A stretch of DNA of 64,000 bases from a bacterium (GCA_031411255.1 JANOAS010000367.1:10683-74682); one strand, 5' to 3'. Positions 11,855 through 58,474 are shown, counted from the stretch's first letter. Numbers and translations: made by a program. The notes: generated by a model not told the origin, from the letters alone.

Positions 11855-11867
11855 CGCATTCCAGATT

Positions 11868-12629
11868 TTATGCCGCCAGCACGCTCTGGAGCCACGTCAT
11901 TTCACTTTCGATCTCCTCGGGCGTCTCCACCGTGCGTGAGATTTCCCTGCGCAGCTGGTCGCGGAATTTCGTGCGCAGCCGGAAGACCAGCAGCCGCACC
12001 GCAGTCTCGCTGGCGTTGAGTTTCGCCGCCACGTCACGGTAGGACGGCGGCTCCTCATCCCAGAGGAGAAAGGGCAGAAGCGTCTCGAAGACATCCCCCC
12101 GGCCGGACACTTCAAATTCACCGCGCAGCCGCAGCCGCACCCCGGCGATCAATTCCCCGGCCCAGGCCCGGGTGAAGAGGGCTTCCGGCGAGCGGTTGTC
12201 CACCGGCTCGCGGGCGTAGCGCTCCTCCGCAGACATCGCATCGAATGACAGCGGGCGCCGGCTGCCGCCGCGCTTCTCCGCCGCCTCGTACCGGCGTTCG
12301 TCGAAAAGGTGGTGCTTCAGCACCTGCAGGAGGAAGGTCCGCAGCTTGCCCTTCCCCCGCTCCGCCGCCTCGATGGATTCATCCGCCAGCATCTTCACGA
12401 AAAACCCCTGCGTCAGGTCCTCCGCGTCCTCGTGGTGGTGTCCCTGTCGGCGGAGAAAGGCGTAGATGGGATACCAGTAGAGCGCGCACAGTTCCTCCTG
12501 CGCCAGCCTGGCCTCGGGACCGCCCTGCCGCACCTTTGCTACCAGGGACCACCGCGTCGCCGGGAATGCCTGCGCCTGCCGGACCTCTGCGGAGGCGGCG
12601 TCATCTGGAGCGGCATGATTTGCGGGCAT
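11868..12629 (-). CDS. ECF-like sigma-70 family RNA polymerase sigma factor (kinase-associated type)
   Basis: Region 2 is DLTQGFFVKML. The region 4 HTH is SYRDVAAKLNASETAVRLLVFRLRTKFRDQL. An N-terminal TRWSLV motif is present. The stop lies 13 nt upstream of the kinase start. No anti-sigma-like ORF is adjacent. Confidence 0.85.
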   Translation of the reverse strand: MPANHAAPDDAASAEVRQAQAFPATRWSLVAKVRQGGPEARLAQEELCALYWYPIYAFLRRQGHHHEDAEDLTQGFFVKMLADESIEAAERGKGKLRTFLLQVLKHHLFDERRYEAAEKRGGSRRPLSFDAMSAEERYAREPVDNRSPEALFTRAWAGELIAGVRLRLRGEFEVSGRGDVFETLLPFLLWDEEPPSYRDVAAKLNASETAVRLLVFRLRTKFRDQLRREISRTVETPEEIESEMTWLQSVLAA

Positions 12630-12770
12630 GAGCGCAGAAAACCCGGCTTGCCGCCCATGGAAAGAAAAAAAAACGGAAAATCGTCTGAAACGCCGCGCCC
12701 GGAATTTCGAAATGGAAGGCCTGACGGGCTCTCACGGCCCGCACCAGTCCAACCAAACCACTGTCATTCC

Positions 12771-14882: not shown

Positions 14883-14912
14883 TCCCCGCCTGACGATCAC
14901 TCATTCACTCCC

Positions 14913-15548
14913 ATGAAGACAAAACTGATCTTGTACACGGCTGTGGGGGCCCTCCTCTGGCAGTCGGCTGCGGAGGCCGGCAGCCGCTCCGGCGGCACGG
15001 GCACCGGGGCCGTCACCATCCCGGCGGACACCCTCAGCAGCGGTGGCGGCACAGCCACCGGCGGCAGCGGCGCCACGGCGGTGGTCGTATTTTCCAGCCT
15101 CGGCGGTGTCGTCGGCACCGTGAAGGCGGCGTCTGGATCCCCTGTCGTGAAGCAGGGGTTCGTCCCGCAGATCCTGCCGGCCACCCTCAGCGGGTTCGAC
15201 CTCTGGGCCAGCCAGAACATCCCCGCCGGGAAGGACGCGGCCTTCGCCGGCGACGGAAACGGTGATGGCATCCCGAACGGCGTGGCCTACGTCTTCGGCA
15301 CCACGCGCGTCAGCCCTACAGGGAAAGGGAAAATCCCCATCCCTCCGGCCATCCCGGCGGATGTGGACGTCTACCTGGACCGCAGCATCGACCTGACGAC
15401 TTGGCTTCTCGCCCGGGTCAGCTGGGTGAACGGAGCCGCGCCCACCTTCGTCAATGGCAACTTCTCCATCGTCGCAGGTGAAGTGGTGGACACAGCCAAC
15501 CCCCCGGGTGGCGACTTGTTCTACCGGTATCGGGTCGTTCGGCGCTGA
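14913..15548 (+). CDS. small secreted protein carrying the shared C-terminal module (GDGNGDGIPNGVAYVFG ... LFYRYRVVRR)
   Basis: Signal peptide MKTKLILYTAVGALLWQSAAEA. It has a Gly/Thr-rich N-terminal half, a DxDxDGIPN calcium-site-like motif and a terminal F-Y-R-Y-R-V motif. It starts 30 nt after the fibre gene and is followed by a strong terminator. Confidence 0.7.
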   Translation: MKTKLILYTAVGALLWQSAAEAGSRSGGTGTGAVTIPADTLSSGGGTATGGSGATAVVVFSSLGGVVGTVKAASGSPVVKQGFVPQILPATLSGFDLWASQNIPAGKDAAFAGDGNGDGIPNGVAYVFGTTRVSPTGKGKIPIPPAIPADVDVYLDRSIDLTTWLLARVSWVNGAAPTFVNGNFSIVAGEVVDTANPPGGDLFYRYRVVRR

Positions 15549-15709: not shown

Positions 15710-15993
15710 GCGCCCCGAACTTCGTGCCCCGTCGACCCTCCAGCCGCGTGCACCAAGCCTCCGTTCCCCTTCGTGCAGACAAGGTGCGGCGAATCGGCTG
15801 AAGCCTGCACTATTGACATTCTGAGCATTCCGGATGCCTGCTGCCCCTGCGCAAAACGAAGGGGCGGCACGTCAAGAGTCCAGCCTTCAGGCGACCCGTG
15901 CGCGAGGTGCCCGTGCCTGGTGCACGCCGGCCGCAGCGAGCTGCGAGCCAAACAGCGGCGGCGAGCTTCCGCACTCCACGACGGCTCCGCCGC
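15710..15993. repeat. dispersed intergenic repeat elements X (15710-15742) and Y (15933-15993), copies also at 25176-25209 (X), 24856-24872 (partial X) and 25108-25168 (Y, inverted)
   Basis: Hand alignment. Y at 15933-15993 versus the reverse complement of 25108-25168 gives 46/61 identical, ungapped. X is gcgccccgaacttcgtgccccgtcgaccctcca versus gcgccccaagcttcgtgccctgtcgagccctcaa (about 29/33 with one indel, same orientation). Confidence 0.7.
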
Positions 15994-16256
15994 TTCGCTT
16001 CTCCTCGTCACCCAGTCTTCCAGTCTCCCGGCCTCCCGGCCTCCCGGCCAGAGCCCGGTCTCGTCTTTTGACTAAATGGTCCCCCTCAATTCCCCTAGGA
16101 TTCTTGTGGGGCATCTGCCGATGTTTGAGTATTTCGGTGACGGTTCCTGGAAAAATACGTAGAACGGAGGGAGCGAATCAAACCCGCCCAACCCGAAAGA
16201 GTCGCCCCTGCGGCCCTCCTGTTTCAGCTTTCAAGCCCAAGATCAGCCCCAGTAAC

Positions 16257-19200
16257 ATGAAAAACAGTCCATCCTCCTGCGTTCCCGCATCTTTGACATC
16301 CGCTTCGTCCCTGCTTCTGCAGCTGTGGTTGCTGACGGTGTCTCTGGTCCTGCTGCCTGCAGGCTCCGCACTGCGGGCGCAGACGCCGATCCATGCCTAC
16401 GAGTTCAACGGCACCATGGCCGACACCTACGGCGGGCCGGCGATGTCGGGCGGGACTTTCCCGGGGCAGACGACGTACACGTTCGGCATCGGCCAGGGGC
16501 CGGGGGTGCAGGGGGCCATCCCGGCGAATGCGGATTACTCGCTGGAGATGCTGTTCTACTTCAGCTCCATGCCAGGGACCTATGCCTCGCTGGTCAACTT
16601 CAGCAACCTGACCTCGGATGGGGGCCTCTACCTGTGGAACAGGGCGCCCTACTTCGCCCCGAATGGCGGCTCGCCGACGTCGCCGGTCGTACCACTGGTC
16701 ACCTACTCCCGGATGGTCATCACGCGGAGCTTTTCCACCCAGGTCACCAAAATCTACCTGGATGGAAACCTGGCGGCGACGCGCACGGACACGGCCAACA
16801 CCTACCTCTCGCCCTCGGGCTGGCTCCACTTCTTCCGGGATGACGGCTCGGAAAACGCCCCTGGCGTGGTGGATGCCATCCGCATGTACGACACGGTGCT
16901 GTCGGACTCGCAGATCGCCGCCATGGGTGTAGGTGCGACGGCGTTGCCGGAGATCAGCCTCTTCCGCGGCACGACATCGGGCACGGAGCTGTTCTCCTCG
17001 TCGAGCACATCGGACCTCGGCAGCATCACGCTGGGGAACTCCAGCGCGGCGCAGACCTTCACCATCTGGAACACGGGCAAAAAGGACCTGATCCTGGGGA
17101 CGCTGAGCAAGGTGACAAACAATGCAAGCTACCCGAACTACGCGGACTTCACGCTCGGCACGCCGGCCAAGTCGGTGCTGGCTCCGGGGGAATCGACGAC
17201 GTTCACCGTGACCTTCACGCCCTCTGCCACGGGCGCGCGGCTGGCGCAGGTGAACATCCCGAACAATGACCAAGATGAGTCAACTTTCGTTACCAACCTG
17301 AGCGGCACGGGCACGGCGCCGGTGCCGCTTTCGCCCTCGCGGTTCTGGACGTTCAACGGGACCTTCAATGATTCGCTCGGCGGCACGCCGATGGGGCCGT
17401 ACAATGCCAACGGCACGAACAACCAAAGCCCGAACCTCTCGGCGACCTACTACAGCTGGGATCCCGGCCAGAACCTCGACACCAGCAGTGTGCTGAGCAA
17501 CTACAACGAATGGACGATGGAGCTGGTCTTCAAGCTGGCCAAAGTGACGGGCTACAACGCGCTGGTGAACTTCGACAGTCTGGCCGGGGACAACGCGGTT
17601 TTTGTGCAGGACGGGAAACTGAGCTTCTACGGCATCAGCAGCGGCGCGGTTTCGGCCAGTGGGCTTTTCTCGGCCGACACGTGGTACCGGCTGATCGTCA
17701 CGCGACGGGCCTCCGACGGGCAGATGAAGGGCTATGTGGACGGCACCGAGGTGCTGAGCGCCACTGCGGGCAGCGGGCAGCTGGCCGGGCAGGCGCCGCA
17801 AGGCAGGCTCAAGTTCTTCGGCGATGCCTCCGGGGAGGTCTCAGGCGGCTCGGTGGACCTGATCCGCATCTACTACGGCGTTATGCCCTCCACTCAGGCC
17901 ACGGCACTGGGTTCGGGCCGGGTGCCGGACATCAGGGTGACGCTCGGCACCTCCTCCGGACCTGAGATCGTGAACGGCTCGCTGCTGGACTACGGCTACG
18001 TGCAGGTGGGTGCCGGAAATCAAAAGCTGATCACCATTGCCAATCTCGGTACGGGAAATCTGACCGTTCAGTACCCCGGTTTATCCGGTGCGAATTCATT
18101 CCAGTTTGCCATCGCCGGCAATCCAGCCGGCACGATCCCGCCGCTATCCACTGCCTCGTTCAATCTCAATTTTTTCCCAACCTCCGTGGGCACGAAGAAC
18201 GCCTACATGCAGCTCGGCAACAGTGACGCGAATGACAATCCCTACGCTATCAATCTGACTGGAGTGGCTGTGTGGCTGCCTACGGTCACGGCGGTCTCCC
18301 CAGCGAGTGGACTGGTGGCTGGGGGCACCCCGGTGACGATCACGGGCACAGACTTCATGCCGGGAGTGACGAGCGTGACGATCGGCGGTGTGGCCGCGAC
18401 GGCTGTCTCCGTGCAGACCTCGACACTCCTTACCTGCACGACGCCGGCGGGCACGAGCGGAGCGAAAAGTGTGGTGGTGACGACGCCTGGCGGCGTGAGC
18501 AATACAGGGATTAATTTCACCTACAACGGAGTGCCGACCGTGGTCTCAGCCTCGCCATCAGCGGGGGCGCTGGCAGGAGGCAACACAGTGACCCTGACGG
18601 GCACGGACTTCCTCGCGGGAGCCACGGTGACGATCGGTGGGAATGCCGCCTCGAATGTGAATGTGGTGAACGCCACGACTCTGACGTGCACGGCTCCGGC
18701 CGGCACGGCGGGGGCGAAGAGTGTGATCGTAACGACAGCCGGCGGATCAAGTGCGGCGAACTCACTCTATACGTACGCCGGCGCGCCGACGTTGACGAAC
18801 GTGTCTCCCGGCAGCGGACCGCTCGGCGGTGGAAACACAGTGACGCTCACGGGCACTGGATTCCTGCCCGGAACGGCGGTTGCGATTGGCGGGGGCCAGG
18901 CCTCGGCGGTCACTGTGACGAGCCTCACGAGCCTGACGTGCACCGCCCCGGCGGGAGCCGCAGGGGTGGCGAATGTGAGTGTAACCACTGCGGCTGGAAG
19001 CAGTGCCGGCGGCATCACCTACACGTACGTTGCGGCACCCACGGTGACGAATGTCACGCCGAACTCCGGCCCGGTGGCTGGCGGCACGAGCCTGACCCTC
19101 GCGGGCACCGCCTTCATCCCGGGAGCCACCACGGTGACCATCGGCGGCAGTGCAGCAACGGCGGTAAATGTGGCAAGTGCCACAAGTCTCACGTGTATCG

Positions 19201-22200
19201 CCCCAGCGGGCACTGCGGGGGCGAAGAGTGTGATCGTGACGACGGCTGGTGGCTCAAATCCGGCGAATACGCTTTTTACCTACTACGTTCCGGCGCCTGA
19301 AATCGCTGTGACGGGCCTCGGCGTGGACATCACGGATGGCGATGCAACCCCAGCCGCCACAGACGGCACGAGTTTCGCCTCCACGGGCGTGGTCGGACCT
19401 GCGACGCGGAATACTTTCACCATCACCAACAGTGCAACGGCCACGAGCTCGCTCACGCTGGGCACGGCGACGGTCACAGGCGATTTCATGATCACGCAGC
19501 CCCTCGCCACGACGCTGGCACCCGGGGCGAGTACGACGTTCACGGTGGACTTCGATCCCACCACGACCGGGACACGAACGGGCACGGTGAGCATCCCGAA
19601 CAACGACTCGAACGAGAATCCTTTCGATTTCAGCGTCAGTGGCGTCGGCACGGCGCCGGAGATCTCCGTCACGGGTGCCGGGGTGGACCTCGCCGATGGC
19701 GACACAACGCCGGCGGTGACTGATGGGACGGACTTTGGCTCCGTCATGGCCAACAGCGCCTCGAAGGTCACACGTTTCACCATCACCAACAGTGCGGCGG
19801 CGACGACGAGCCTGACTCTCGGCCCGGTGACGGTGACGGGGGCTGGCTTCACCACCACGCAACCCGTACCGGCCGGGGCGGTGCCCATTGGCGGCTCTGT
19901 CACCTTCGATGTCTCCTTCACTCCCACGACCACCGGCCCGCGCACGGCCACGGTCAGCTTCAGCACGAATGACATCGACGAGAATCCCTTCAACTATTCC
20001 ATCCAGGGCACAGGCATGGTGCTGCCGACAATCACGACGCCGACGAGTGCCTCCATCACGACCGTGGGAGCGGTGCTGGGTGGCAACGTCACGTCGGACG
20101 GCGGTTCGCCCCTCCTGTCCCGCGGGGTTCTTTATTCTGCGACAGCGACCAATGCGGATCCGACCACTGGAGGAACGGGAGTGACGACGGTCACGCTGGG
20201 CTCCACCACAGGCGTCTTTACCATACCGGTCAGCGGTCTGACACCCGGCACAGCCTACAGCTTCAAAGCGTATGTAGACACCGCCGCAGGCGTGGTCTAT
20301 ACCAGCGTGGCTACCTTTACTACGGGCACCACGCCGCCCGCTCTCACCATCCAGGCCTCGACAAATGTGCAGGCCAGCAGCGCCACAGTCAACGGCACCG
20401 TGACGAGCGAAGGCACTGCCGCAGTCACCGAGCGTGGTTTCGTCTATGCCCCCACGAGCGTCACCACGACGCCTGCCATTGGCGGCCCGGGCGTGGTCAA
20501 GCTCATCAAGGTCGGCTCTTTGGGCTCCTTTACTGCGGCTCTTACGGGCCTGAGCGTTTCCACAGCCTACAACGTCCGCGCCTACGCCACCAGCAGTGCG
20601 GGCACGAGCTACAGCCCGGTGGGCGGCCTCACCACCGTGACACCAATTCCCCTGACCGTCGTGGCCAACAATGCCACCCGCACGTTTGGGGCGGCCAATC
20701 CTGCATTCACCGGCACGGTCACCGGCTTGGTCGCGGGGGACGGCATCACCGTCACCTACGGCACGCCGGCGGGAGCCACGAGCAGTCCCGGCACCTACGC
20801 CATCGCCCCGGTCCTCGCCGATCCGCTCGGCCGCCTCGGGAAGTACGCGCTCGCCCGGACGGACGGTGTGCTGACCATCACTGCGGCCCAAACGACGACC
20901 GTGGCGGCTGCGGCGACGGTGCAGGTCAGCGCCTCGGCGCAACCTGTCGCGTTGAGCGCCGCCGTGACCTCCGGAGGTGCGGCGGTTGCGGCCGGGAGCG
21001 TTTCCTTCCAGGTGAAAAACGGCGCCGCAAACGTCGGCAGCGCCGTCGTCGCGTCCGTGGATGCCGCAGGTCTGGCCTCCGCCAGCTACACGCTGCCCGC
21101 CGGGCTGGCGGGCGGCAGCTACAGCATCATTGCCACCTTCGCGGCCACGACGAATTACCGGGCCAGCACCTCCGCCGCCGCCGTGCTCACCGTGGTGCCG
21201 CCGCCTCCGGTCAGTTCGTTTGTGGTCGAGGGCGTGGTCAGCCCAGTCACGGCGGGAGTTCCGTCCACGACGCTGACGGTTGAGGCCCGGAACGCTGCGG
21301 GCGGCGTTTACACGGGGTATCGCGGCACGATCCGCTTCACCAGCACCGATGCCTCCGCCGTGCTGCCTGCGGCGTACACATTCACCGCAGCGGATGCCGG
21401 TCTCCACACCTTCAGCGTCACGCTGCGCACCGCTGGCGAGCAGGGCATCACAGCGACGGATGCGGCCGCGGTCGTCAGCGGATCGCAGACGGGCATTTTC
21501 GTGGACCCGACGACGGGCGACAAGCGCCTCCTCGGCTGGGGCGCCAATGCCAGCGGCCAGCTCGGCGATGGCACGACGAATGACGCTCTCACCCCCGCCG
21601 CGCTCCCGCCCTTCGTGCCCGGGCCTGCTGGAGCCTTCGGCACTGGTCCCTCGGTGGCGGCCGGAGCCACGCACAGCGTGGGCTTGCTGGCCAATGGCCG
21701 CGTCTATGCCTGGGGCAGCAACACGAAAGGGGAACTCGGCAACATGACGACCACGGCCAGCCCCCTCGCTGTGCCTGTCCGGTGGTTCACCGGGGATATC
21801 TTGAGCAGTGCCGTGGCGGTGGCGGCAGGGGAGAAATTCAGCCTCGCGCTCCTGCCGGACAACAGCGTGTGGGCTTGGGGCGATGTGCCCGGCCTCGGCT
21901 TGACCGCGCCGTGGACCTACGCCCGCCCGGTGCCCGGGCTCAGCAGCGTGGCCGCCATTTCTGCCGGAGGCCGCTTCGCCATGGTGCTGAAACACGACGG
22001 CACCGTCTGGACCTGGGGCGAGAACGCCAGCGGCGTGATCGGCAACGGTACGCTGGCCGCCACGGTGGCGCCGGTTCAGGTGGCCGGGCTCACGGGGATC
22101 TCCAGCATCTCGGCAGGAGCTGCCTTTGCTGTGGCAGTGGAAAGGACCACGGGCAGCGTCTGGACGTGGGGTGCCAATGACCGCGGCCAGCTCGGACGGA

Positions 22201-24704
22201 CCACAACGGCCGCATACGCCACCACGCCGGGGCAAGTCGTGGGCGCCGCCGGCGCGGGCACGCTCAGCGGCATCGCCTCCACCGCCGCCGGCGGCAGTCA
22301 CGTGCTGGCCCTGCGCAGCGATGGATCCCTGCTAGCCTGGGGCGGCGGTGCCACCGGGGCGCTCGGCCTGGGTACTTTCGCTGATGCTCCGGTGCCCGCG
22401 CCCGTGCTCACGCCCGCAGGCACGGCACCGCTCGGCAGCATCCGGTACATTTCCGCCGGCGCCTGGCACAGCCTGGCCCGCACGACCGATGGCGTCGTGC
22501 TCGCCTGGGGCCAGGGCGGCCAGGGCCAGCTCGGCCTCGGCACGCCGACGGACCGCTTCCTGCCCACGGCCGTGCCCGGCTTCACCCCCGCAGGCTTCGT
22601 CACCTCCGGGCCCCTGGCCACGCACAGCCTGGCGCTCGACGGCCCCAGCAGCCCGGTGCGTTACGCCTTCACGCTGCCCCCGGTCATCAATGCGCTCACC
22701 AGTTTCACCGTAGGAGTGCGTGCGGTCGATGCCCTGGGCAACTCGCTCGTCTACACCGGCCGGGCGTTGTTCAGCCTCGATGTGCCGAATGGCTATGCTT
22801 CCCCCTACCGCGTGAACTTCCCCGAGTCGCTCAACTTCATCTCGGGCGTGCCCTACGGCCTGACGATCTATCCGCCCTCCGGCGGTGTGCACACGCTCAC
22901 CGCGTATGACAAGGCCACCGGGGCCAGCAGCTCCATCTCCTTCACCGCAGCGCCCAAGCCCTCGAAGATCCTCCTGTCCGCCGTCTCGGGCACCAATTTC
23001 GTCAAGGCCTACGTGATCGGAGCGGACAATCAGGGCTTGGAGTCCAACGGCTGGGTCACCTTCCGCTTCATCAAGAACGGTACGACGCTGCTCATCACCG
23101 CGCCGGAATACACCAACAACAGAGCCGGTGCATTCGCCTACACCGAGGTGACGAAGAGCACTGCCGCGGCCTGGGGAGCGGGCGTGAGCGTCGAGGCCAG
23201 CTTCAGCGGCACGGCCCTCTTCTCCCCCAGCACGGCCACGATCGCCGCCACGTTCACAAGCTTTTCCGCACCAGCGGCCCCCGGCCGTCTCGGTGCACGG
23301 TCTTCGAGCAGCAGCACGGAGCAGGTCGGCACTTTCTCGCCCTCCACCACCACGCTGCCGTCCGTTGGCTTCAGCTTGGTGGACCGCTTCGTCACCCTGA
23401 GCACCGATGGCCTGCTGCCGGCCGGTGCGGCGGACCAGGGGACGGTCATTTTCTCCATCGCCACCGCTGCGGGCGAGCGCGTGGGCCAGGCCTGCGCGGG
23501 AGACGTCGCCGGCGGCATCGCCAGTGCCAGCGCCCTGCTGCCCGCAGGTCTGCCGGTGGGGGACTACGTCGTCACCACCTTCTACACGGGCGGCCCGACT
23601 GCCCCCGCCAGCGAAGGCGAACTCAGCCTCAGCGTCCTGCCCGCCGCGAGCACCGTGGTGGCAGATCCCGTGCTTCTCGGCGCCAGTGCGGCAGCTCAGA
23701 GCGTGCTGCTCACCGCCCAGGCCACCAGCCCCGCCGGGCCGCTGACCAGCGGCAGCATCACCTTCCAGGTCAAAGGTGCTGGCGGTGCCAACGCCGGCAC
23801 AGCCGTCACCGTCCCTGTCGCGCCTCCCTCGGGTGGAGCAACCGCCGGAGCCGTGCGCGCTGCCTACACGCTGCCCGCAGGCCTCGCCGGCGGCAGCTAC
23901 ACCATAGCCGCCAGCTACACCAGCGCCACGGCAGGCATCGCCAGCAGCAGCGATGAGGCCCACCTGCTCACCATCGAGCGCATCCCGCTCGCCGTCCGTC
24001 TCGCTGTGGCCGATCAGGCCGTTCTTCCCAGCGCTGGCGCGCAAGCCATCACACTCACCGCCCAGCTTGCCTCCAGCGAGGGCGCGACCGTTCCCGTAGC
24101 AGGCGGCACCGTGGCCTTCCGCCTCTTCGCCACGAGCCCCGCTGGCGGCCCCGGCGCCCTCATCGGCACCGCAGCCACCAGCAGCATCGTGGTCGCAGGC
24201 ACCACCACCGCCAGCTACACCGTGCCCTTCGGCACCCCCGCCGGCGCCTACATCATCGAGGCCGCCTACACCGGCTCCACACCCGTGACCGGCGCGCTCT
24301 TCACCACCGCCGCCACCACCGCCCGGCTCACCTACGCGAGTGCTCATCAGGCATGGCGGCTCGCTTACTTCGGCACCCCTGAACCCACAGGCCTCGCCGC
24401 TCCCGGCGCTGACTCCGACAACGACGGCATTCCCAATTTGCTCGAATACGCCTTCGGCCAGCACCCCGCTGGCGGCCCCAGCCCCGCACTGCCTGCCGCC
24501 CAGATCGCAGGGGGAGCCTTCTTCGTCAGTTTCACCCAGCCAGCCGGTGTCAGCGGCATCACCTACGGAGCCGAGTGGAGTCCCAGCCTGGCCCCTGGCA
24601 GCTGGATGCCGATCCCCGATACCGGATCCGGGAGCGTGCACACCTTCAGCGTGTCCGCCGCCGACCAGAGGAAATTCCTGCGGTTGACCATCAGCGAGCC
24701 CTGA
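16257..24704 (+). CDS. giant (2815 aa) secreted multidomain surface protein: LamG x2, HYDIN/choice-of-anchor-D-like, IPT/TIG x4, Fn3-like, MBG, Ig-like, RCC1 propeller, shared C-terminal module
   Basis: ATG 16257 gives MKNSPSS...SLLLQLWLLTVSLVLLPAGSALRA, a signal-like N-terminus. LamG-like blocks: YEFNGTMADTYGG, WTFNGTFNDSLGG. Choice-of-anchor-D-like blocks: TFTVTFTPSATGARLAQVNIPNNDQDE, TFTVDFDPTTTGTRTGTVSIPNNDSNENPF. MBG-like: PLTVVANNATRTFGAANPAFTGTVTGLVAGD. RCC1 blades: GWGANASGQLGDGT, WGSNTKGELG, WGANDRGQLG, WGQGGQGQLGLGT. The C-terminus is DSDNDGIPNLLEYAFG ... KFLRLTISEP. The listed start at 15834 lies in repeat-rich non-coding sequence. Confidence 0.9.
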   Translation: MKNSPSSCVPASLTSASSLLLQLWLLTVSLVLLPAGSALRAQTPIHAYEFNGTMADTYGGPAMSGGTFPGQTTYTFGIGQGPGVQGAIPANADYSLEMLFYFSSMPGTYASLVNFSNLTSDGGLYLWNRAPYFAPNGGSPTSPVVPLVTYSRMVITRSFSTQVTKIYLDGNLAATRTDTANTYLSPSGWLHFFRDDGSENAPGVVDAIRMYDTVLSDSQIAAMGVGATALPEISLFRGTTSGTELFSSSSTSDLGSITLGNSSAAQTFTIWNTGKKDLILGTLSKVTNNASYPNYADFTLGTPAKSVLAPGESTTFTVTFTPSATGARLAQVNIPNNDQDESTFVTNLSGTGTAPVPLSPSRFWTFNGTFNDSLGGTPMGPYNANGTNNQSPNLSATYYSWDPGQNLDTSSVLSNYNEWTMELVFKLAKVTGYNALVNFDSLAGDNAVFVQDGKLSFYGISSGAVSASGLFSADTWYRLIVTRRASDGQMKGYVDGTEVLSATAGSGQLAGQAPQGRLKFFGDASGEVSGGSVDLIRIYYGVMPSTQATALGSGRVPDIRVTLGTSSGPEIVNGSLLDYGYVQVGAGNQKLITIANLGTGNLTVQYPGLSGANSFQFAIAGNPAGTIPPLSTASFNLNFFPTSVGTKNAYMQLGNSDANDNPYAINLTGVAVWLPTVTAVSPASGLVAGGTPVTITGTDFMPGVTSVTIGGVAATAVSVQTSTLLTCTTPAGTSGAKSVVVTTPGGVSNTGINFTYNGVPTVVSASPSAGALAGGNTVTLTGTDFLAGATVTIGGNAASNVNVVNATTLTCTAPAGTAGAKSVIVTTAGGSSAANSLYTYAGAPTLTNVSPGSGPLGGGNTVTLTGTGFLPGTAVAIGGGQASAVTVTSLTSLTCTAPAGAAGVANVSVTTAAGSSAGGITYTYVAAPTVTNVTPNSGPVAGGTSLTLAGTAFIPGATTVTIGGSAATAVNVASATSLTCIAPAGTAGAKSVIVTTAGGSNPANTLFTYYVPAPEIAVTGLGVDITDGDATPAATDGTSFASTGVVGPATRNTFTITNSATATSSLTLGTATVTGDFMITQPLATTLAPGASTTFTVDFDPTTTGTRTGTVSIPNNDSNENPFDFSVSGVGTAPEISVTGAGVDLADGDTTPAVTDGTDFGSVMANSASKVTRFTITNSAAATTSLTLGPVTVTGAGFTTTQPVPAGAVPIGGSVTFDVSFTPTTTGPRTATVSFSTNDIDENPFNYSIQGTGMVLPTITTPTSASITTVGAVLGGNVTSDGGSPLLSRGVLYSATATNADPTTGGTGVTTVTLGSTTGVFTIPVSGLTPGTAYSFKAYVDTAAGVVYTSVATFTTGTTPPALTIQASTNVQASSATVNGTVTSEGTAAVTERGFVYAPTSVTTTPAIGGPGVVKLIKVGSLGSFTAALTGLSVSTAYNVRAYATSSAGTSYSPVGGLTTVTPIPLTVVANNATRTFGAANPAFTGTVTGLVAGDGITVTYGTPAGATSSPGTYAIAPVLADPLGRLGKYALARTDGVLTITAAQTTTVAAAATVQVSASAQPVALSAAVTSGGAAVAAGSVSFQVKNGAANVGSAVVASVDAAGLASASYTLPAGLAGGSYSIIATFAATTNYRASTSAAAVLTVVPPPPVSSFVVEGVVSPVTAGVPSTTLTVEARNAAGGVYTGYRGTIRFTSTDASAVLPAAYTFTAADAGLHTFSVTLRTAGEQGITATDAAAVVSGSQTGIFVDPTTGDKRLLGWGANASGQLGDGTTNDALTPAALPPFVPGPAGAFGTGPSVAAGATHSVGLLANGRVYAWGSNTKGELGNMTTTASPLAVPVRWFTGDILSSAVAVAAGEKFSLALLPDNSVWAWGDVPGLGLTAPWTYARPVPGLSSVAAISAGGRFAMVLKHDGTVWTWGENASGVIGNGTLAATVAPVQVAGLTGISSISAGAAFAVAVERTTGSVWTWGANDRGQLGRTTTAAYATTPGQVVGAAGAGTLSGIASTAAGGSHVLALRSDGSLLAWGGGATGALGLGTFADAPVPAPVLTPAGTAPLGSIRYISAGAWHSLARTTDGVVLAWGQGGQGQLGLGTPTDRFLPTAVPGFTPAGFVTSGPLATHSLALDGPSSPVRYAFTLPPVINALTSFTVGVRAVDALGNSLVYTGRALFSLDVPNGYASPYRVNFPESLNFISGVPYGLTIYPPSGGVHTLTAYDKATGASSSISFTAAPKPSKILLSAVSGTNFVKAYVIGADNQGLESNGWVTFRFIKNGTTLLITAPEYTNNRAGAFAYTEVTKSTAAAWGAGVSVEASFSGTALFSPSTATIAATFTSFSAPAAPGRLGARSSSSSTEQVGTFSPSTTTLPSVGFSLVDRFVTLSTDGLLPAGAADQGTVIFSIATAAGERVGQACAGDVAGGIASASALLPAGLPVGDYVVTTFYTGGPTAPASEGELSLSVLPAASTVVADPVLLGASAAAQSVLLTAQATSPAGPLTSGSITFQVKGAGGANAGTAVTVPVAPPSGGATAGAVRAAYTLPAGLAGGSYTIAASYTSATAGIASSSDEAHLLTIERIPLAVRLAVADQAVLPSAGAQAITLTAQLASSEGATVPVAGGTVAFRLFATSPAGGPGALIGTAATSSIVVAGTTTASYTVPFGTPAGAYIIEAAYTGSTPVTGALFTTAATTARLTYASAHQAWRLAYFGTPEPTGLAAPGADSDNDGIPNLLEYAFGQHPAGGPSPALPAAQIAGGAFFVSFTQPAGVSGITYGAEWSPSLAPGSWMPIPDTGSGSVHTFSVSAADQRKFLRLTISEP
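18279..19285 (+). repeat. four tandem IPT/TIG-like domains (~83 aa each) inside the giant gene
   Basis: Each unit begins with a PT(V/L)T..SP.SG...GG..VT(I/L)TG(T)(D/G/A)F motif and ends ..LTCT(T/A)PAG..G...V.VTT.GG.S. GAKSV(V/I)VTT recurs in three of the four units (GAKSVVVTT, then GAKSVIVTTAGGS twice); the third unit has GVANVSVTT. Confidence 0.8.
21528..22640 (+). repeat. RCC1-like beta-propeller blade array inside the giant gene
   Basis: About seven blades of ~50 aa carry the pattern V(W/Y)(A/T)WG.N..G(Q/E)LG.G. Confidence 0.8.
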
Positions 24705-25378: not shown

Positions 25379-28300
25379 CTACGGAGCGATGGTGCCGGCG
25401 CCTGGCGAGAGGTCGCGCGCCCGGAAGAAGGTGCGGACGCCCACGGGGACGGCGGCGGCGGCGGTGGCCGAGCTGCCGCTGGCGGTGAAGATGATGGAGT
25501 CACCGGTCTCGGCATCCGCTGCGGCGGTCCAGGTCATGAGGTCCGTGGATTTCTCCAGGATGTAGGCGCGGCCGGAGGTGGTGTTCCAGGTGAGGGAGGC
25601 CGAGCTGGGGGTGCCGGGGGAACCGTAGGACCAGCTGGAGGTGCTCAGGTTGATCTCCGACGTGGCCAGCGGGGTGAAGGGGAGGGAATCGACCGGGGTG
25701 TTGGCGATTTCCTCGACCTGGCCGGCGCTGAGGGGTGTGCTCCACATGCGGAACTCGTCGTAGCAGCCATCCGTGCTGGCATCACCGGTCCAGTTGGAAC
25801 GGCCGAGCCAGTTGTTCACGTCCTGGATGTCGCTGAGCTTGGTGGCCAAGTTCATGGAACCCATGGGCTGACCGTCGCGGTAGTAGCGCATTTGGGGCGA
25901 GCCGTTGTTCCCGACGGAATCATAAACGACCGCGAAGTGATACTTCTGGCCATTGATGACGGGGTTGTTCGAATCGAAGGCTGCACCGGGATTCACCTCC
26001 ATGCGGGTGAAGTTTTGGTCGCCGCCGACCTGCGTGGAGAGGAGGAAGTAGTTGGTGCCCTGGGCATCGCCACCAGGAGCGAAAATCTCGCCCGCCTGGC
26101 CATTGCCGAAGTCGTAAACGCGGGACCATGCCTGGCTGCTGTTGACGGTGATCCAGCCTTCCAGCGTCACATCCGTGAGGGATGAGAGGATGCCATTGGG
26201 GAGGTCGATGTAGGCTGCGGTGTGGGAGTCGCCGCCGCCGAGGCACACTTCACGGCCATTGCGGGCCCAGAGGCCGTTGCCGGCTGCCGGGGTGCCAGCC
26301 GTGCCGCGAATGACGCCGTGGGCGGTGCCGACGGAGTCCTTCACTGCGGTGCCGGTGCCTTCATTGAAGCTCCAGCGATGGGCCAGTGTCATCGGGCTGA
26401 TGGTGATCGCCTTGGTCACCGAGCCCGCGCCGTTGGTGGCGGTGATGGTGTAGGTGGTGGCCACGGTCGGAGAGACCACGACAGAGCCGCCTGCGGCAGG
26501 GGTGACGGCACCGACGCCGTGGTCGATGGTGGTGGAGGTCACATTCCCGGAAATCACCCAGGTGAGGGTGGCGGATTCACCAGGTGCGAGAGTGCGGCTG
26601 TCCGCGCTGTAGCTGGTGATGATGGGCGGGGAGGTGGGGGGAAGCGTGGCGGCATCCGGACCGGCAGTAAAGCTGGCCGCGATGTCCTCCTGACGGAGCG
26701 CACCACCCCAGATGCGGAGTTCATTGTAGCAGCCGTTGGTGTTGTTGTCTCCGGACCAGTTCGAACGACCGAGCCAGTTGTTGACACTGCCGATGGCGCT
26801 GAGGGGCCGGGAGCTGGTGCCTGCTGTCATGAGCACGCCGTTCTTGTAGTAGCGCACGCGGTTGACGCCGGGTGCCAAGTCATCGCCCACGGTGTCGTAA
26901 ACGACGGCAAAGTGGAACTGCTGGCCAGCGCTGATGGGGTCGACCACGTCAACGGTGACACCGTTGTTGATTTCAAGACGCTTGACGTTTTGATCACCGC
27001 CGACCTGCGCGGTCAGGGTGAGGTAGTCAACTCCGTTGAAACCGCCGCCCGGGGCATTGATCTCGCCGGCCGAGCTGGTGCCGAAGTCGAAGACGCGGCT
27101 CCAGTTCTGGTTGCCGTTCACGGTCACCCAGCCTTCGATGGTGGTGGTGGACAGGCCGGAAAGGATGCCATTGGGCAGATCGATGTAGGCCGAGCCACCC
27201 GAGCCACCCCCGCCGAGACAGACCTGGCCGGTCGCGCGGTTCCAAGTGCCGTCGCCAGAGGCGGCGCCCCCGGCAGGGCCGACGATGACGCCGTTTCCGG
27301 GAGTGCCGGCGGCGGAGTCGAGGACGGTGGAGCCGGCGGACTCATTGAAGCTCCAGCGGTGGGTGACCGGCTGGCGGACGTAGGGGGCGACGGAGAAGGA
27401 CTGGGTCACCGTTCCGTTCGCGTTTCCTGCGGTCAGGGTGTAGGTGGTGGCTACGGTGGGGTTGACCACAATCGAACCGCTGGTCGTGTTGACGGCACCG
27501 ATTCCGTTGTCGATGGAGGCGGTGGTGGCATTCGTGAGGTTCCAGGTGAGCGTGACGCTCTCACCGGGAAGGAATTTCTGGTGGTTGCCGGTGAAGGAGT
27601 TGATGCTGGCCACGATGGTGGCGTCGAGGGCGGCCTTTTCCGAGGTGTAGTTGCTCGCGATTTCCGCAGGGGTCATGACGGTGTCCTTCACGCGGAGGCG
27701 GAGGAGATTGATGCCGTCATTAAACTGGGCGACTGAGCCGTTGTCGTTGTTCTGAGCGCCGAGGCGAATCGGCAGCCCGGCACCGGTGGTACTCGTGGCC
27801 CAGATGTTGAGGCTCTTGTTTTCGAAATGCATGGCCACGCCGTCGGAATAGACGCGCTCGGTGACCCCGTCGTACGTCCAAGTGAGGTAGTGCCAGGCAT
27901 TGGCGGCAGGTGCACCCACTGTGACGTCCTGGTCGATCCAGCCGATGTCCTCACCACCCCAGTGGCCTACGGCCCCCCAGCGGGAGTCGTTGCCGTAGTT
28001 GAAGGAGTTATTGGTGCCGACGCCCCCGCCGCGGCGGCCCCAGGCGATGACGGTCTCTTCTCCAGGAATATTCGGGTTGTAAACCCAGGCCTCGACGGTG
28101 ACGGGCTTGTTCACACCGGTGATGGCGGTCGGGGCGACCGGGCCGGTGAAATAAGTGGCGCCGCCAGGCAGGTTGATGCGCTTGTAGCCGCTGGTGAAGC
28201 CGACGGTGGGAGTGCCTGAAGCGGCGAAGGTGCCGCCGAGGGTGCCGCTGTTGGTCCAGCTGGAGACCGCGCCGACGGGCAGGGAGGTGGCGTCGAGGTC

Positions 28301-28393
28301 AACGATGGTGGCAGCCTGGGTGCTGGCGGGGACTGTGATCAGGCTGATGAACAGCCAGCTCAGCGTGGAGTAGGAGAGAGGGGTTTTTTTCAT
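25379..28393 (-). CDS. secreted 1004-aa protein with three LamG/ConA-like lectin domains and Ig-like spacers
   Basis: ATG at 28393 gives MKKTPLSYSTLSWLFISLITVPASTQA. The LamG_3-type pattern recurs: HRWSFNE..G..V.DS.G...G...G, AYIDLPNGILS, GWVTVN..Q.WSRV(F/Y)DFG, NWLGRSNW.GD, YDEFRMW/YNELRIW. The C-terminal domain ends TFFRARDL. A large internal duplication is present. Confidence 0.85.
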   Translation of the reverse strand: MKKTPLSYSTLSWLFISLITVPASTQAATIVDLDATSLPVGAVSSWTNSGTLGGTFAASGTPTVGFTSGYKRINLPGGATYFTGPVAPTAITGVNKPVTVEAWVYNPNIPGEETVIAWGRRGGGVGTNNSFNYGNDSRWGAVGHWGGEDIGWIDQDVTVGAPAANAWHYLTWTYDGVTERVYSDGVAMHFENKSLNIWATSTTGAGLPIRLGAQNNDNGSVAQFNDGINLLRLRVKDTVMTPAEIASNYTSEKAALDATIVASINSFTGNHQKFLPGESVTLTWNLTNATTASIDNGIGAVNTTSGSIVVNPTVATTYTLTAGNANGTVTQSFSVAPYVRQPVTHRWSFNESAGSTVLDSAAGTPGNGVIVGPAGGAASGDGTWNRATGQVCLGGGGSGGSAYIDLPNGILSGLSTTTIEGWVTVNGNQNWSRVFDFGTSSAGEINAPGGGFNGVDYLTLTAQVGGDQNVKRLEINNGVTVDVVDPISAGQQFHFAVVYDTVGDDLAPGVNRVRYYKNGVLMTAGTSSRPLSAIGSVNNWLGRSNWSGDNNTNGCYNELRIWGGALRQEDIAASFTAGPDAATLPPTSPPIITSYSADSRTLAPGESATLTWVISGNVTSTTIDHGVGAVTPAAGGSVVVSPTVATTYTITATNGAGSVTKAITISPMTLAHRWSFNEGTGTAVKDSVGTAHGVIRGTAGTPAAGNGLWARNGREVCLGGGDSHTAAYIDLPNGILSSLTDVTLEGWITVNSSQAWSRVYDFGNGQAGEIFAPGGDAQGTNYFLLSTQVGGDQNFTRMEVNPGAAFDSNNPVINGQKYHFAVVYDSVGNNGSPQMRYYRDGQPMGSMNLATKLSDIQDVNNWLGRSNWTGDASTDGCYDEFRMWSTPLSAGQVEEIANTPVDSLPFTPLATSEINLSTSSWSYGSPGTPSSASLTWNTTSGRAYILEKSTDLMTWTAAADAETGDSIIFTASGSSATAAAAVPVGVRTFFRARDLSPGAGTIAP

Positions 28394-28638
28394 GGAATGG
28401 GCAGGGTTTTGCGGTGGGGTGGCCGTCCTTTCAAACAGAGGAGGATGCCGAAAGCAGGGACGCACTGCAGCCCCCAGGCACCCGCCTCCGAATAAATCGG
28501 GCGCGGTTCAATTTGTGATTGTGAGGGAAATCGGACAATTGTCGAGAAAATTTCGCAATTACGAGTGCTAATTCTCGGACTTTTCCTGCCCGGGTGCCCC
28601 TGCAAAAATCCACCTGACCGGGTGAAAGGTGCTGCGAT

Positions 28639-38819: not shown

Positions 38820-38833
38820 CGCGGCGGAAAAAA

Positions 38834-39715: not shown

Positions 39716-39792
39716 AAAAAAGGCAAGGATTTGGTTGAAATTTACGAAAAATTTAATACTTTCCAGATGTGTTAGCTTCTGAAACCGTTTCC

Positions 39793-42515: not shown

Positions 42516-42527
42516 TCCGGCGGGCGA

Positions 42528-43205: not shown

Positions 43206-43285
43206 GGTGCTAGGCTACTCCCTGGCGCGGCAGGACGCAACCCTCAAGGACCCGGCCGGAGTCCCGCCTGCGAAGCGGCGGCGGC

Positions 43286-44095: not shown

Positions 44096-44122
44096 TGTAG
44101 TGCAGGTGTGTGGTGTGGCTGG

Positions 44123-45340: not shown

Positions 45341-45631
45341 TCGGGAGGGATGGGGAGCGGGAGATGCCTGACCCAGCTTGATTGTTTGGAAATACAAAAA
45401 GTATGCCGAGATTTGTAGATGCTGGAAACGGCGCCTTAGTATAGTGGTTATATTTAGAATTACTAGAGAAAACTTCACTTTGAGTCGCAATTGTCATTTT
45501 TGCGCATCGGGGCTGTCCGTCGCCGCTGGGGCGGGCAAAGCCGGAACCGCAGCCTGCGGGGTGTCGCCCTGGCGAAAAGATAGGGGTGAACCAGGGCGGG
45601 TTTCTCTGGACAAGCTGTCATCTTCATTACA

Positions 45632-54072: not shown

Positions 54073-57000
54073 ATGAAAAAAACACTCTGGATCGCTTTGG
54101 CCGGCCTTTGCTTAGGATTTTGGACGCTTCATCATGATGCCCCCAACCCGAAACACTTCCCTGTAGGGACCCCTGCCAATCCCCCGCGGCAAGCCCCTGC
54201 GGAAACGGGGGCATCAGCGGGCCATGCCATCGCCGGGTCCCAATCCTCGGAGTCCAAAGGCAGTGCTGGCCTGTTGCCTTCCGGGGCAATGTCCCGTGAA
54301 CTGCAAGAGGAGGAGCGTGCCTCTTTCTACGAAGTGGTTCAGGCGGCACGCCATGCGGTCACTTCGCTTCTGCCGGAGGAGGCCCGACTGCCGCAGAATC
54401 TCGGGGTGCATTATTTTGCCGCCAATCCGGGTCAGAATCTGACAGCTAGATTTCTGGAAACCGGGGTGCGCCTTGAGTCCGGCAGACCTGATCGCCAATG
54501 GCGGGCGCAGTTCGGGATCCACTCCCCCACCAGGGTGCGTCCGTCGCAGTCGGCTTCCTCGCGGGTGGAATATGCCTCCCCTGAGGGAGTTGTTGAGTGG
54601 TATCAAAACCGTCCCGAAGGAATCGAGCACGGCTTTGTCCTTCCAAGCCGCCCACGCCCCCCGGCACCGGAAAACACCGCTGATCGGGAATGCGGATTGG
54701 AAATTCCGATAACGGGCGACTTGCGACCCGTGGCCGATCCGGATTCGGTCGGCGATATCCTTTTGGTGGATAAAAACAGTGTCCCGGTGCTGGGCTACCG
54801 TCAGCTCAAGGTGTGGGATGCCACCGGCAGGCCATTGCCTTCCCGGATGCGTCCCAGTGCGGCTGGCGTGCTGCTGGCCATCAACGATGCCCAGGCTGTG
54901 TATCCGGTGACGATTGATCCACTGATTGTGAATTTGGAGCAGAAGCTCAAACCGCAGATTGGCACGGCCGATTCCCATCTCCTCACGGGAGCGAAGTTGG
55001 GCACTTCCATCAGCATTTCCGGTGAGACGGCCGTGGTCGGGGGAGTGGGGGAAAGGTCCGTCTATGTTTTTGTCCGCTCGGGCGGGGTCTGGACTTTTGA
55101 AGCGCGCCTCAAACCTGGCACAAACACGGATGATCAATTCGGCCAGAGCGTTTCGATCTCCGGTGAAACCGTGTTGGTTGGCGCTTATCTGGACGATTTA
55201 TCCACGGGCAGCAACGCAGGGAGTGCTTACGTCTTCATGCGGAATGCGGGAGTGTGGAATCAGCAGGCGAAATTGGTGCCCGGCGACTCCGCGGCAAGTG
55301 ACACGTTTGGCGTTTCCGTCAGTTTGGAAGGAGACACCGCGTTGATTGGCTCCCGCCTGGATGATGACCGGGGCAGCAATTCCGGCAGCGCTTACATTTT
55401 CAAGCGCACTGGCACTGTGTGGAGCCAGGCGGCCAAATTGACCGCCACCGATGGACAAAGTGGAGACGAGTTTGGGGTGCGGGTATGCCTCTCCGGTGCC
55501 TCCGCATTGATTGGGGCCACCTATGATGACGACCGCGGCAGTGACGCCGGGAGTGCTTACGTCTTCACCGGCAGCGGGGCCAGTTGGACGTTTCAGCAAA
55601 AACTGACGGCGGCGGACGGCGTGGCGGGAGACAACTTCGCCAGCGCCCTCTGCCTGTCCGGCGATGCCGCAGTCATCGGTGCCAGCGGCGATGATGACCG
55701 GGGCAGCAATTCCGGCAGTGCCTACCTCTTCACCCGCAGCGCCGGCACCTGGAGCCAGCAGCAAAAAGTCACCGCCTCCAACGGTTCCGCAGGAAGCTAC
55801 TTTGGCGGCGCGGTGGGGCTGGACGGTGACCACGCCGTCATCGGAGCCCATCTGGCGAACACCGTCTATGTATTCCAGCGCTCAGGGGCCAACTGGACCG
55901 AACAGACCCGGCTGACCGCCGGAGCGGGGGACGGTTATTTCGGCGTCAGTGTGGCCATCGCCGGCTCCACCATCGTGGGTGGGGCCTTCGATGAAGACGG
56001 ACCTAACAATGCATCCGGTGCCGCGTATGCCTTCGTCCGGAATGCGGGCACGTGGGGTTTCCAAGCCCAGATGCCGGTGGATGATGCCGCTCAGGAAGAC
56101 CGGTTCGGGCAGGCTCTGGCCATTGATGGAGATACCATTCTGGTGGGCGCGGCATCGGACAATACCCCGGCCGGGGCCGGGGCCGGAAGTGCCTACCTCT
56201 TCGTGCGCAGCGGGACCACCTGGACGCAGCAAGCCCGATTGCGCCCGGCCGATGCCGCGAAAGAGGATTTTTTCGGTTCGTCCGTCAGCCTCTCCGGCCA
56301 GTCCGTCCTCGTTTCCGCCAGAGGGGACGATGATCGCGGAGATGGTTCCGGCAGTGCCTATGTCTTTGTCCGTTCCGGTAGCACCTGGAGTCAGCAGGCC
56401 AAACTGACCGCCGCTGACGGGGCCAGTAATGACGACTTTGGCTATTCGGTCAGCCTGGATGGCGACACGGCGCTGGTGGGAGCACTTTACGCCGATGGCG
56501 TCTATGTTTTTGTCCGCACTGGTGCCGTCTGGACCCAGCAAACCAAACTGACCGCCGCCGATGGTTCCAACGGGCAGTTCTTCGGGGAAGCTGTCAGCTT
56601 GCAGGCGGACACCGCCGTGATCGGGGCGTCGCGCGACAATGAAAAAGGGAGCAGTGCCGGGGCCGCCTATGTCTTTACCCGCAGTGGCACTGCCTGGAGC
56701 CAACAGGCCAAACTGGCCGCTGCCGATGCTTCGCAGGGAGTTCAGTTTGGCAATGCCGTCAGTCTCCGCAGCGATACGTTGGTCGTTGGAGCCTTCGGCG
56801 CACAGAATGCGGCAGGTAGTTCCACCGGAGCCGCGTATGTTTTTGTCCGCCAAGGTACTCTGTGGACCCAGCAGGCCAAGCTTTTAGCGACGGATGGCCA
56901 CGCGGGTGCTTGGTTTGGTCACTCCGTGAGCCTATCCGGCGAGCGGGTGGTGGTGGGGGCCCGATACGACAATGAGCGGGGTTTTGAAGCCGGCGCTGCC

Positions 57001-58375
57001 TACGTCTTTGTCCGAACCGGCACTTTCTGGACTCCCCAGCCCAAAATCACACCCGCTGATGCCGGTTCCGGCGATTTCTTTGGAGTCGCGGTTGGTCTGA
57101 GCGGCCAGACGCTGGTCATTGGAGCTTCCGGTGATGACACGCCCCTGCCTGATGGCCGTCCAGTCAAGGATCAGGGCAGCGCCTATGTCTATTTGCTCAC
57201 CCCGGTGCCGGGTCCGGAAATCGTGCTGCAGCAGTCCAGCGGACCGCAACTTTTTGATGACCAGTCCACCGTCGTTTTCAGTGCTGCCGTGGGTAGCTCC
57301 CAATCCCTTTCCTTCCTGCTGCACAATGTCGGGGACGCCTCCCTCAGCGGAATATCCGCCAGCCTGTCCGGACCTGGAGCTTCCGCTTTCTCGCTGGTCA
57401 CCCCTCCCCCTGCGGCCGCCGCCGCCGGCACCTCCACGCCTTTCGGCATCCGATTTCAACCCACCGCCGCCGGCATCCTCAACGCCACGCTTACCCTCGT
57501 CAGCAACGATGCCGACGAAAACCCTTTCACCATTCAACTTCGGGGCGGGTTTTTCGTCGATCTTCCCTTGGCTCTCGATGCTGAAGGCTTCGTCTTCACC
57601 ACCAAAACCGGGACCGGCTGGTATGGTCAGACGGATGTCGCCACCATCGGCGGGGACGCTGCGCGCAGCGGCCCAATCGACCAATACGAGTCCAGTGACC
57701 TCAGCACTACCGTCACCGGGGCCGGCACCCTGTCCTTCTGGTGGAAGGTCAGCTCCGTGCAGTTCTTCGATGAACTTCGCCTTTTTGTGGATGGCAGTTT
57801 ACGGACGTTAATTTCCGGAAATGTGGACTGGCAGCAGCGCACCCTTCAAATCACCGAACCTGGCAGTCATGAAGTCCTCTGGCGTTATAAGCGGCAATCC
57901 AGCACCCCCGCCGGCAGCGATTGCGGTTGGGTGGATGGCTTTACCTGGACTGGTCAATCATCCCCAATGACGGACTGGGCCACCGCCGCCGGCCTGACCG
58001 GCAACGAGGCGCTGCCCCTCGCCACCCCCCAAAGGCGATGGCGTGCCCAACCTCCTGAAATTCGCCTTCAACCTGAATGGGGCGGCGGCGGACAGCCGCA
58101 TCCTGACATCCGGGACCGGCACCGCCGGGCTGCCGGTGATTGCCGTGCAGGGCCCGACGGGGGGACGTGTGCTGCGGGTGGAATTCCTGCGCCGCATCGG
58201 CAGCGGACTGACCTACACGCCGAAGAAAAGTCCCGGTTTGAATGCGGGTTCGTGGCTGCCGCTCGCGGCTACGCCCACCGTCACCCCAATAGACGCCGCC
58301 TGGGAGCGGGTGGTTTACCTGGACCCGGTCACCGGCGGCAAGTGGTTTGCCCGGGTGGAAGTCGCGCTGCCGTAG
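54073..58375 (+). CDS. giant secreted FG-GAP-repeat protein, interrupted by a +1 frameshift at a C6 run (58025-58030); intact length would be 1433 aa
   Basis: Signal/TM-like N-terminus MKKTLWIALAGLCLGFWTL. At least 17 repeats of the form FG.SVS(I/L)SG(E/D)T.(L/V)VGA..DD.....GSAY(V/L)F. A choice-of-anchor-D-like domain (FGIRFQPTAAGILNATLTLVSNDADENPF) and an SFWWKVSS...LRLFVDG lectin-like domain follow. After EALPLATP the 0 frame becomes Arg/Gly/Pro-rich nonsense. The +1 frame reads KGDGVPNLLKFAFNLNG...KWFARVEVALP, the same C-terminal module as the 2815-aa protein. Confidence 0.85.
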
Positions 58376-58418: not shown

Positions 58419-58474
58419 TAACATAGACGTTCCCATTCTGCAACCTGCCAAATTTTTAACCGCAATTTCTTTTT

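Follow-up and report, generated by a model that had tools for sequence, protein, structure and literature searches.

A 64,000-nucleotide stretch of bacterial DNA (GCA_031411255.1, JANOAS010000367.1:10683-74682; hereafter the window, 64 kb, with positions counted from its first letter) contains a gene for an exported protein of 2815 amino acids (aa), the C-terminal end of which carries a module that recurs at the end of otherwise unrelated exported proteins. The gene was placed at 16257..24704 on the + strand from the open reading frame (ORF) and the N-terminus of its product: the ORF spans 15834-24704, and the actual protein start is at the signal peptide, at 16257. The product is identical to the 2815-aa sequence P0020, and exact look-up of the protein returned a single 9-kb Logan contig. 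Searches with Pfam and NCBIfam revealed choice-of-anchor D and Z, TIG, RCC1 and Ig-like domains, with scores of 184 bits for the choice-of-anchor D model NF012200 (cutoff 45) and 67 bits for the choice-of-anchor Z model NF058597.

The module of the 2815-aa protein, which we call type A, comprises 124 aa (24330..24701, +) and ends with ...KFLRLTISEP followed by the stop codon. It was delimited with a profile made from outside sequences and with an AlphaFold2 model, and scored E 6e-50 with a 225-sequence profile. The first-pass annotation, made from the sequence of the window, quoted a sequence that is present but set its start one base out of frame, and its estimate of ~100 aa has to be corrected to ~125 aa, as a conserved Trp helix lies upstream of the loop described below. 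The order of the elements is Trp helix, EF-hand-like loop and Ig-like β-sandwich.

The AlphaFold2 model of the 124-aa type A module, built with 61 sequences, consisted of one compact domain (predicted local distance difference test score, pLDDT, 92.8; predicted template modelling score, pTM, 0.84). Helices were modelled at residues 5-14 (AHQAWRLAYF) and 36-41, and β-strands at residues 58-60, 63-69, 78-84, 103-109 and 116-122. The β-sandwich proposed in the first-pass annotation for the C-terminal end was thus supported by the model. The sandwich half (24495..24701, +), located by the modelled strands and by a profile of the second half of the module, contains the conserved blocks PAGVSGITYGAEWS..L.PGSW and F.RL.V..P. 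The 12-residue loop D28-E39, DSDNDGIPNLLE (24411..24446, +), leads into the helix LLEYAF and is apparent in the sequence, in the 61-sequence alignment and in the model. In the 2815-aa protein the loop has D1, D3, D5, G6, N9 and E12, which is the 1-3-5-6-9-12 spacing of EF-hands and dockerins. Residues D32, G33, N36, L37 and E39 are nearly invariant among the 61 sequences, and so are loop positions D5, G6, N9 and E12 in type A. From this pattern the type A loop probably holds Ca2+.

A second copy is found in a protein with FG-GAP repeats. Domain scans and translation placed the body of this protein, which has a signal peptide or anchor, 13 FG-GAP repeats and a weak choice-of-anchor D domain (41.7 bits to NF012200, slightly under the cutoff of 45), at 54073..58030 (+) in frame 1. 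The module, recognized by BLASTP and by the outside profile, follows at 58031..58375 (+) in frame 2; it has 114 aa plus stop, and its tail is KWFARVEVALP. A comparison of the DNA with the two-frame translation traced the shift to a run of six C residues (58025..58030, +), in which one extra C puts the last 114 codons out of frame with the body of the gene. Deletion of one C restores the frame (...LATPKGDGVPNLLKFAFNL). The first-pass annotation was right that a corrected frame is needed, and had the module itself in frame. The frameshift either stems from an error of assembly or sequencing or is real, in which case it marks a pseudogene or a site of phase variation. The copy is the same module, as had been proposed, but represents a distinct variant, type B, marked by ..GR.LRLEFIRRK.., TWERV and FARV. 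Its nearest relatives (E 1e-16 to 1e-21) are copies in L013, P0012 and L023, which lie internally, directly ahead of a canonical type A copy. Distinct module subtypes were seen in L013, L023, P0012, P0013, L028 and P0150.

The third copy belongs to a small exported protein of 211 aa (14913..15548, +), a member of a conserved ~210-aa family of 19 sequences; exact look-up of the small protein matched no contig. Residues 92-211 (nucleotides 15186-15545) form a diverged and shortened module with the tail FYRYRVVRR, identified by a profile of the first half of the module, by hhalign and through the 19 homologues; here too the sequence quoted earlier is present, but its start was one base out of frame. 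The description of the loop as calcium-site-like, given to all three proteins, holds in full for the 2815-aa protein, whereas the ligands are incomplete in the other two: the FG-GAP loop lacks acidic residues at positions 1 and 3 and carries K at position 12, where the loop of the small protein carries A.

A protein with a LamG domain (25379-28396, minus strand) has a C-terminal segment (25469..25579, -) that weakly resembles the last strands of the module in the second-half profile and in hhalign. By inspection, N-terminal signal-type sequences are present in all four window proteins (2815-aa, small, FG-GAP and LamG).

The similarity of the C-termini was examined in several ways. The pattern DG[IVL]PN..x[YF][AV]F[GN] had exactly three matches in the six-frame translation of the window (15264, 24423 and 58037), the three places named in the first-pass annotation, whose quoted sequences are all present; no match was found in 200 codon-shuffled windows. 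BLASTP aligned the C-termini of the 2815-aa and FG-GAP proteins over 80 aa (E 4e-10). The outside profile, constructed from eight metagenomic homologues without window sequences and run against 836 window ORFs, detected the 2815-aa protein (E 1e-41) and the FG-GAP protein (5e-10), gave only 0.12 for the small protein and did not pick up the LamG protein. A diverse alignment, also without window sequences, was cut into two halves (helix plus loop; β-sandwich). The first-half profile matched the 2815-aa (5e-19), FG-GAP (5e-8) and small (4e-7) proteins, with no match to LamG; the second-half profile matched the 2815-aa (9e-25), FG-GAP (1e-7) and LamG (1.5e-3) proteins, with no match to the small protein. 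Comparison of the small-protein family with the 61-sequence module alignment by hhalign yielded an end-to-end alignment of 105 columns with 83% probability (E 8.5e-6). One domain common to three otherwise unrelated signal-peptide proteins, as first claimed, was therefore borne out by independent profiles and hhalign, and the likeness of the 2815-aa, FG-GAP and small proteins did not vanish in profile alignment.

The assignment of the second half alone to the LamG protein proved marginal: besides the half-profile value, hhalign gave 19% probability (E 1.2e-3) over the last 47 columns only, BLASTP was not significant, and a homologue search with the tail gave nothing. This weak match, and the weakness of the second half of the small protein when tested alone, are what could be said for a chance or compositional origin of the likeness in G+C-rich coding sequence rich in Gly, Ala and Pro. 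With three motif matches observed against none in the shuffled windows, independent profiles reaching E 1e-41 and 5e-10, homologues by the thousand and a structure predicted at high pLDDT, such an origin has a negligible probability. Chance is excluded for the 2815-aa, FG-GAP and small proteins and is possible only for the LamG tail. The three proteins share the module, and the LamG case is only suggestive. A 'bare' sandwich motif, Y.LE.S.DL..W ... FF/FY-R/K without helix and loop, occurs at the LamG C-terminus (25379-25640, -) and also after the module in P0152; its S.DL..W turn resembles an Asp-box minus one residue. The bare motif may mark a wider superfamily.

An exhaustive HMMER search of 1.84 billion cluster representatives showed how large the family is: 12,617 representatives matched at E<=1e-3, 2,529 at <=1e-10 and 521 at <=1e-30. 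Word-indexed searches yielded 10, then 98 relatives. In a genome scan, which used one type A-specific pattern, all of the loci (50/50) were in Verrucomicrobiota (Akkermansiaceae, Verrucomicrobiaceae, Chthoniobacterales and strain IMCC26134), with up to 5-8 module loci and at least 5-8 module copies in one genome. None of the four window C-termini had a match in Pfam or NCBIfam at E<=1. A PDB sequence search with the family profile produced only non-significant matches (E >=0.6) to the FG-GAP Ca2+ loops of integrin αV, a resemblance that is superficial. A full-text literature search with the motif strings NLLEYA, ITYGAEWS and FMRLKV found no relevant paper. The earlier statement that no described domain or sorting signal matches the module is upheld for Pfam, NCBIfam and PDB, and the members seen with names from the Prokaryotic Genome Annotation Pipeline were named after their passenger domains only. 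The domain family appears to be undescribed and has so far been seen only in Verrucomicrobiota. The observation itself is genuine and reaches further than first noted; the function of the module is what we infer.

The placement of the module is overwhelmingly terminal. Among the 159 proteins collected, 148 have it <=6 residues from the C-terminus, and in ~47 of the 50 genome loci the stop codon marks its end; several of the 11 non-terminal exceptions look like frameshifted tails. The tail itself is nearly fixed: 124 of the 148 terminal modules (84%) end in Pro, and in 119 (80%) the distance of F-x-R-L from the end is exactly 9 residues. In tandem cases conservation is usually much stronger in the last copy than in the one before it or further inside (2.9e-49 vs 1.6e-13; 1.6e-57 vs 6.3e-10).

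The proteins that carry the module are very diverse. We found 83 Pfam families across 58 members, including Kelch, RCC1 and DUF5122 propellers, CARDB and FN3; the cargo also includes proteases, oxidases and thiol-disulfide proteins. By inspection, most full-length matches have N-terminal signal peptides. The NCBIfam choice-of-anchor D domain is present in 29 of the 58 members at E<=1e-5, and in P0011 it stands immediately upstream of the modules. Choice-of-anchor domains are surface-protein domains that elsewhere end in alternative LPXTG, PEP-CTERM or type IX secretion system (T9SS) signals (10.1101/2023.03.06.531300). In choice-of-anchor proteins the module occupies the C-terminal end, which is the place of these alternative sorting signals. 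Module identity was 63.5% within a genome and 50.5% between genomes, the upstream 330 aa of the proteins being unrelated. The higher identity within genomes fits co-evolution with a common partner.

The position of the module directly after the choice-of-anchor D Ig-like domain in P0011, and the presence of that domain in half of the members scanned, would also suit a structural or folding element, that is, a C-terminal cap or stabiliser of long β-rich proteins that works like an intramolecular chaperone, without external partner. The module was modelled with high confidence as a single compact domain, on which a Ca2+ site might have a stabilising effect, and the adjoining gene (12768-14882) carries a Peptidase_S74 C-terminal chaperone domain, so chaperone devices are in use at the locus. 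However, the domains preceding the module have many different folds, which makes a common folding role unlikely. The within-genome likeness and conserved blocks of surface type (PAGVSGITYGAEWS, for example) suggest interaction instead, and the module resembled neither S74 nor any other chaperone domain. We regard a folding cap as improbable.

The diversity of the cargo bears also on another explanation, in which the module is an outward-facing binding or adhesion domain (CBM- or FN3-like) at the distal end of large surface or secreted proteins, which binds a substrate, another cell or a matrix component and has no part in sorting. Foldseek searches against PDB with low- and high-confidence models returned as sole structural neighbours generic FN3, Ig, CBM21, CBM48 and CBM56 sandwiches. 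Binding modules, too, are found in tandem and at internal positions, the passengers include adhesin-like propellers and Ig repeats, and the loop resembles an extracellular Ca2+ site. But all Foldseek matches were non-significant (best E ~1e-2, all >=9e-3; template modelling (TM) score <=0.40), and the likeness is a generic one, which places the second half of the module in the general fold class of FN3, Ig-like and CBM domains. Unlike the module, these domains are not tied to the C-terminus, and binding modules are not normally fixed to the last residue with a set tail in >80% of cases. The cargo, with its proteases, oxidases and thiol-disulfide proteins, is very diverse, which argues against one common external ligand. 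A binding role without sorting seems unlikely to us, though less so than the folding cap.

The strict terminal position and fixed tail, the conservation independent of cargo, the within-genome likeness, the signal peptides and the choice-of-anchor passengers together indicate a common partner. We favour, with the scales about level, the interpretation that the module is a C-terminal surface sorting or retention tag, an address or anchor, read by such a partner. In the mechanism that we envisage the cargo, directed by its N-terminal signal peptide, would pass through the inner membrane via Sec. The last ~125 residues would fold as one unit, in which the Trp helix and the EF-hand-like loop pack on the small Ig-like β-sandwich, the loop of type A copies probably holding Ca2+ and the last strand closing the module in the fixed carboxy terminus F-x-R-L-K-V-T-x-P. 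A common partner encoded elsewhere in the genome would recognise the folded module, and the cargo would be moved to the surface, kept there, or both. The partner could be a translocon of the outer membrane, an enzyme that attaches the cargo, or a receptor on the surface. Ca2+ binding, partner recognition and surface localisation are steps that we only infer, and the data do not discriminate between a T9SS-like signal for translocation and a dockerin- or SLH-like module for non-covalent retention. Two other export routes were rejected: the type I secretion system because N-terminal signal peptides are present, and an autotransporter-type C-terminal domain in view of the nature of the module, a soluble sandwich of 125 aa.

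Several observations weigh against a role in sorting or retention. Gene scans of the 64-kb window revealed no gene of the sortase, exosortase or secretion type and confirmed the earlier remark that no candidate processing enzyme is obvious there. ORF clustering of the 50 loci with 6-kb flanks detected no recurring gene besides the module genes and antisense ORFs. Real internal copies exist in P0108, P0144, P0150 and P0152, and type B copies are usually internal, ahead of a type A copy; to our knowledge, genuine secretion signals are not normally repeated. In P0150 five tandem copies of a 'type C' are followed by a further 300-aa region. In P0144 the module (485-618 onward) runs on without a stop into a region with two CxxCH haem motifs that resembles di-haem cytochrome c peroxidase; the arrangement is either a genuine but uncommon fusion or the result of merging two genes. 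If the domain spread along with its stop codon, this could account for the fixed C-terminal end, and recent shuffling could account for the within-genome likeness, for which the compared pairs are not independent. Because the scan pattern was type A-specific, restriction of the wider family to one phylum is not proven by the scan.

Among known systems, the T9SS type A C-terminal domain (CTD; TIGR04183 / PF18962) is closest in logic to the module, which is not a member of it. The T9SS CTD serves as the export signal of Sec-dependent cargo, at the C-terminus of which it forms a β-sandwich that is recognised as a folded unit (PMC4804311, PMC11285876); the system is reported to be limited to the Bacteroidetes phylum (PMC11611037). 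Common to both are diverse Sec-exported cargoes, many per genome, the extreme C-terminal position and occurrence after choice-of-anchor domains, and in the module, too, a small Ig-like β-sandwich is predicted. The CTD is a compact 3+4 sandwich (β1-β7) of ~70-100 aa, to be compared with the modelled strands of the module given above. Unlike the CTD, the module has an extra N-terminal part of ~55 residues, formed by the helix and the EF-hand-like loop, has tandem and internal copies and is found in Verrucomicrobiota, with no PorU-like cleavage known. The CTD hidden Markov models did not match the four window C-termini and did not appear in the family lists of 58 further members, T9SS CTDs were not among the top 50 Foldseek matches of the module, and none of the T9SS core genes (PorK/L/M/N, Sov, PorV, PorU) was found in the 64-kb window. 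A 2026 paper on a different C-terminal domain raises the possibility that a T9SS-like system exists in Akkermansia (PMC13524802). Membership of that domain, from Amuc0953, in the module family was not supported, as the family profile had no significant match to a PDB chain.

PEP-CTERM and related Haft-type signals are common in Verrucomicrobia. Signals of the PEP-CTERM type are short and combine a motif with a transmembrane helix and a tail of basic residues. The PEP-CTERM/exosortase, LPXTG and VPDSG-CTERM signals share with the module the character of many-to-one C-terminal tags on signal-peptide proteins, after choice-of-anchor domains. Unlike the PEP-CTERM-type signals, the module is a 125-aa soluble folded domain without hydrophobic helix and without NCBIfam match. 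Its tails (...FLRLTISEP, ...FARVEVALP, ...FYRYRVVRR) are amphipathic β-strands and do not have the features of a PEP-CTERM signal or transmembrane helix.

Dockerins are usually C-terminal and attach many enzymes non-covalently to one partner. The module shares with dockerin (PF00404) and other EF-hand domains, in full in the 2815-aa protein, the 12-residue loop D-x-D-x-D-G-x-x-N-x-x-E followed by a helix. It differs from dockerin in having a single loop, not two tandem ~22-residue F-hand segments, in the fusion of this loop to a β-sandwich, in the loss of acidic ligands in type B and small-protein copies, and in the lack of a PF00404 match at E<=1. We know of no cohesin-like partner for the module.

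The small protein belongs to a gene cassette (7785-15548 in the window), which is conserved also in the unrelated metagenome contigs L052, L053, L054 and L057. On one strand the cassette has a gene for an extracytoplasmic function (ECF) sigma factor plus one or two genes for Ser/Thr kinases with β-helix/PMP repeats; on the other strand a gene for a 560-800-aa signal-peptide protein with Peptidase_S74 (a tail-fibre intramolecular chaperone) is directly followed by that of a ~212-aa protein. The small protein was considered as a dedicated partner of the 2815-aa protein, and rejected: its homologues always follow the Peptidase_S74 protein, and the downstream gene varies. It does carry the module, as the first-pass annotation had it, but it goes with this cassette and not with the 2815-aa gene.

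Elsewhere in the window, 37662-45490 is a polysaccharide-synthesis cluster with two glycosyltransferases and a membrane protein resembling Wzy/O-antigen ligase (Wzy_C 28 bits, below the Pfam cutoff). The cluster could make a surface glycan. One ORF at 45632-47395 joins DUF116 and polyprenyl synthetase domains. A further exported protein of at least 1846 aa, with FG-GAP and NHL repeats, is encoded from 58460 to 64000 (+) and runs beyond the window edge, its C-terminus lying outside.

The module is a concrete handle on the way in which Verrucomicrobia, relatives of the gut bacterium Akkermansia and many lineages of soil and fresh water among them, bring their very large β-propeller and Ig-repeat proteins to the cell surface. 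The family defines a candidate cargo set, which allows phylogenetic profiling for the machinery, and the module is testable as a surface-display tag. A tentative and rather doubtful extension of the sorting-tag interpretation is that the module is the cargo tag of an undiscovered system, specific to Verrucomicrobiota, that translocates proteins across the outer membrane or attaches them to the surface and corresponds in function to the T9SS of Bacteroidota. If so, such a system would handle >10,000 protein clusters, including proteins of Akkermansia relatives. Even if the sorting role is wrong, the family merits a curated domain model.

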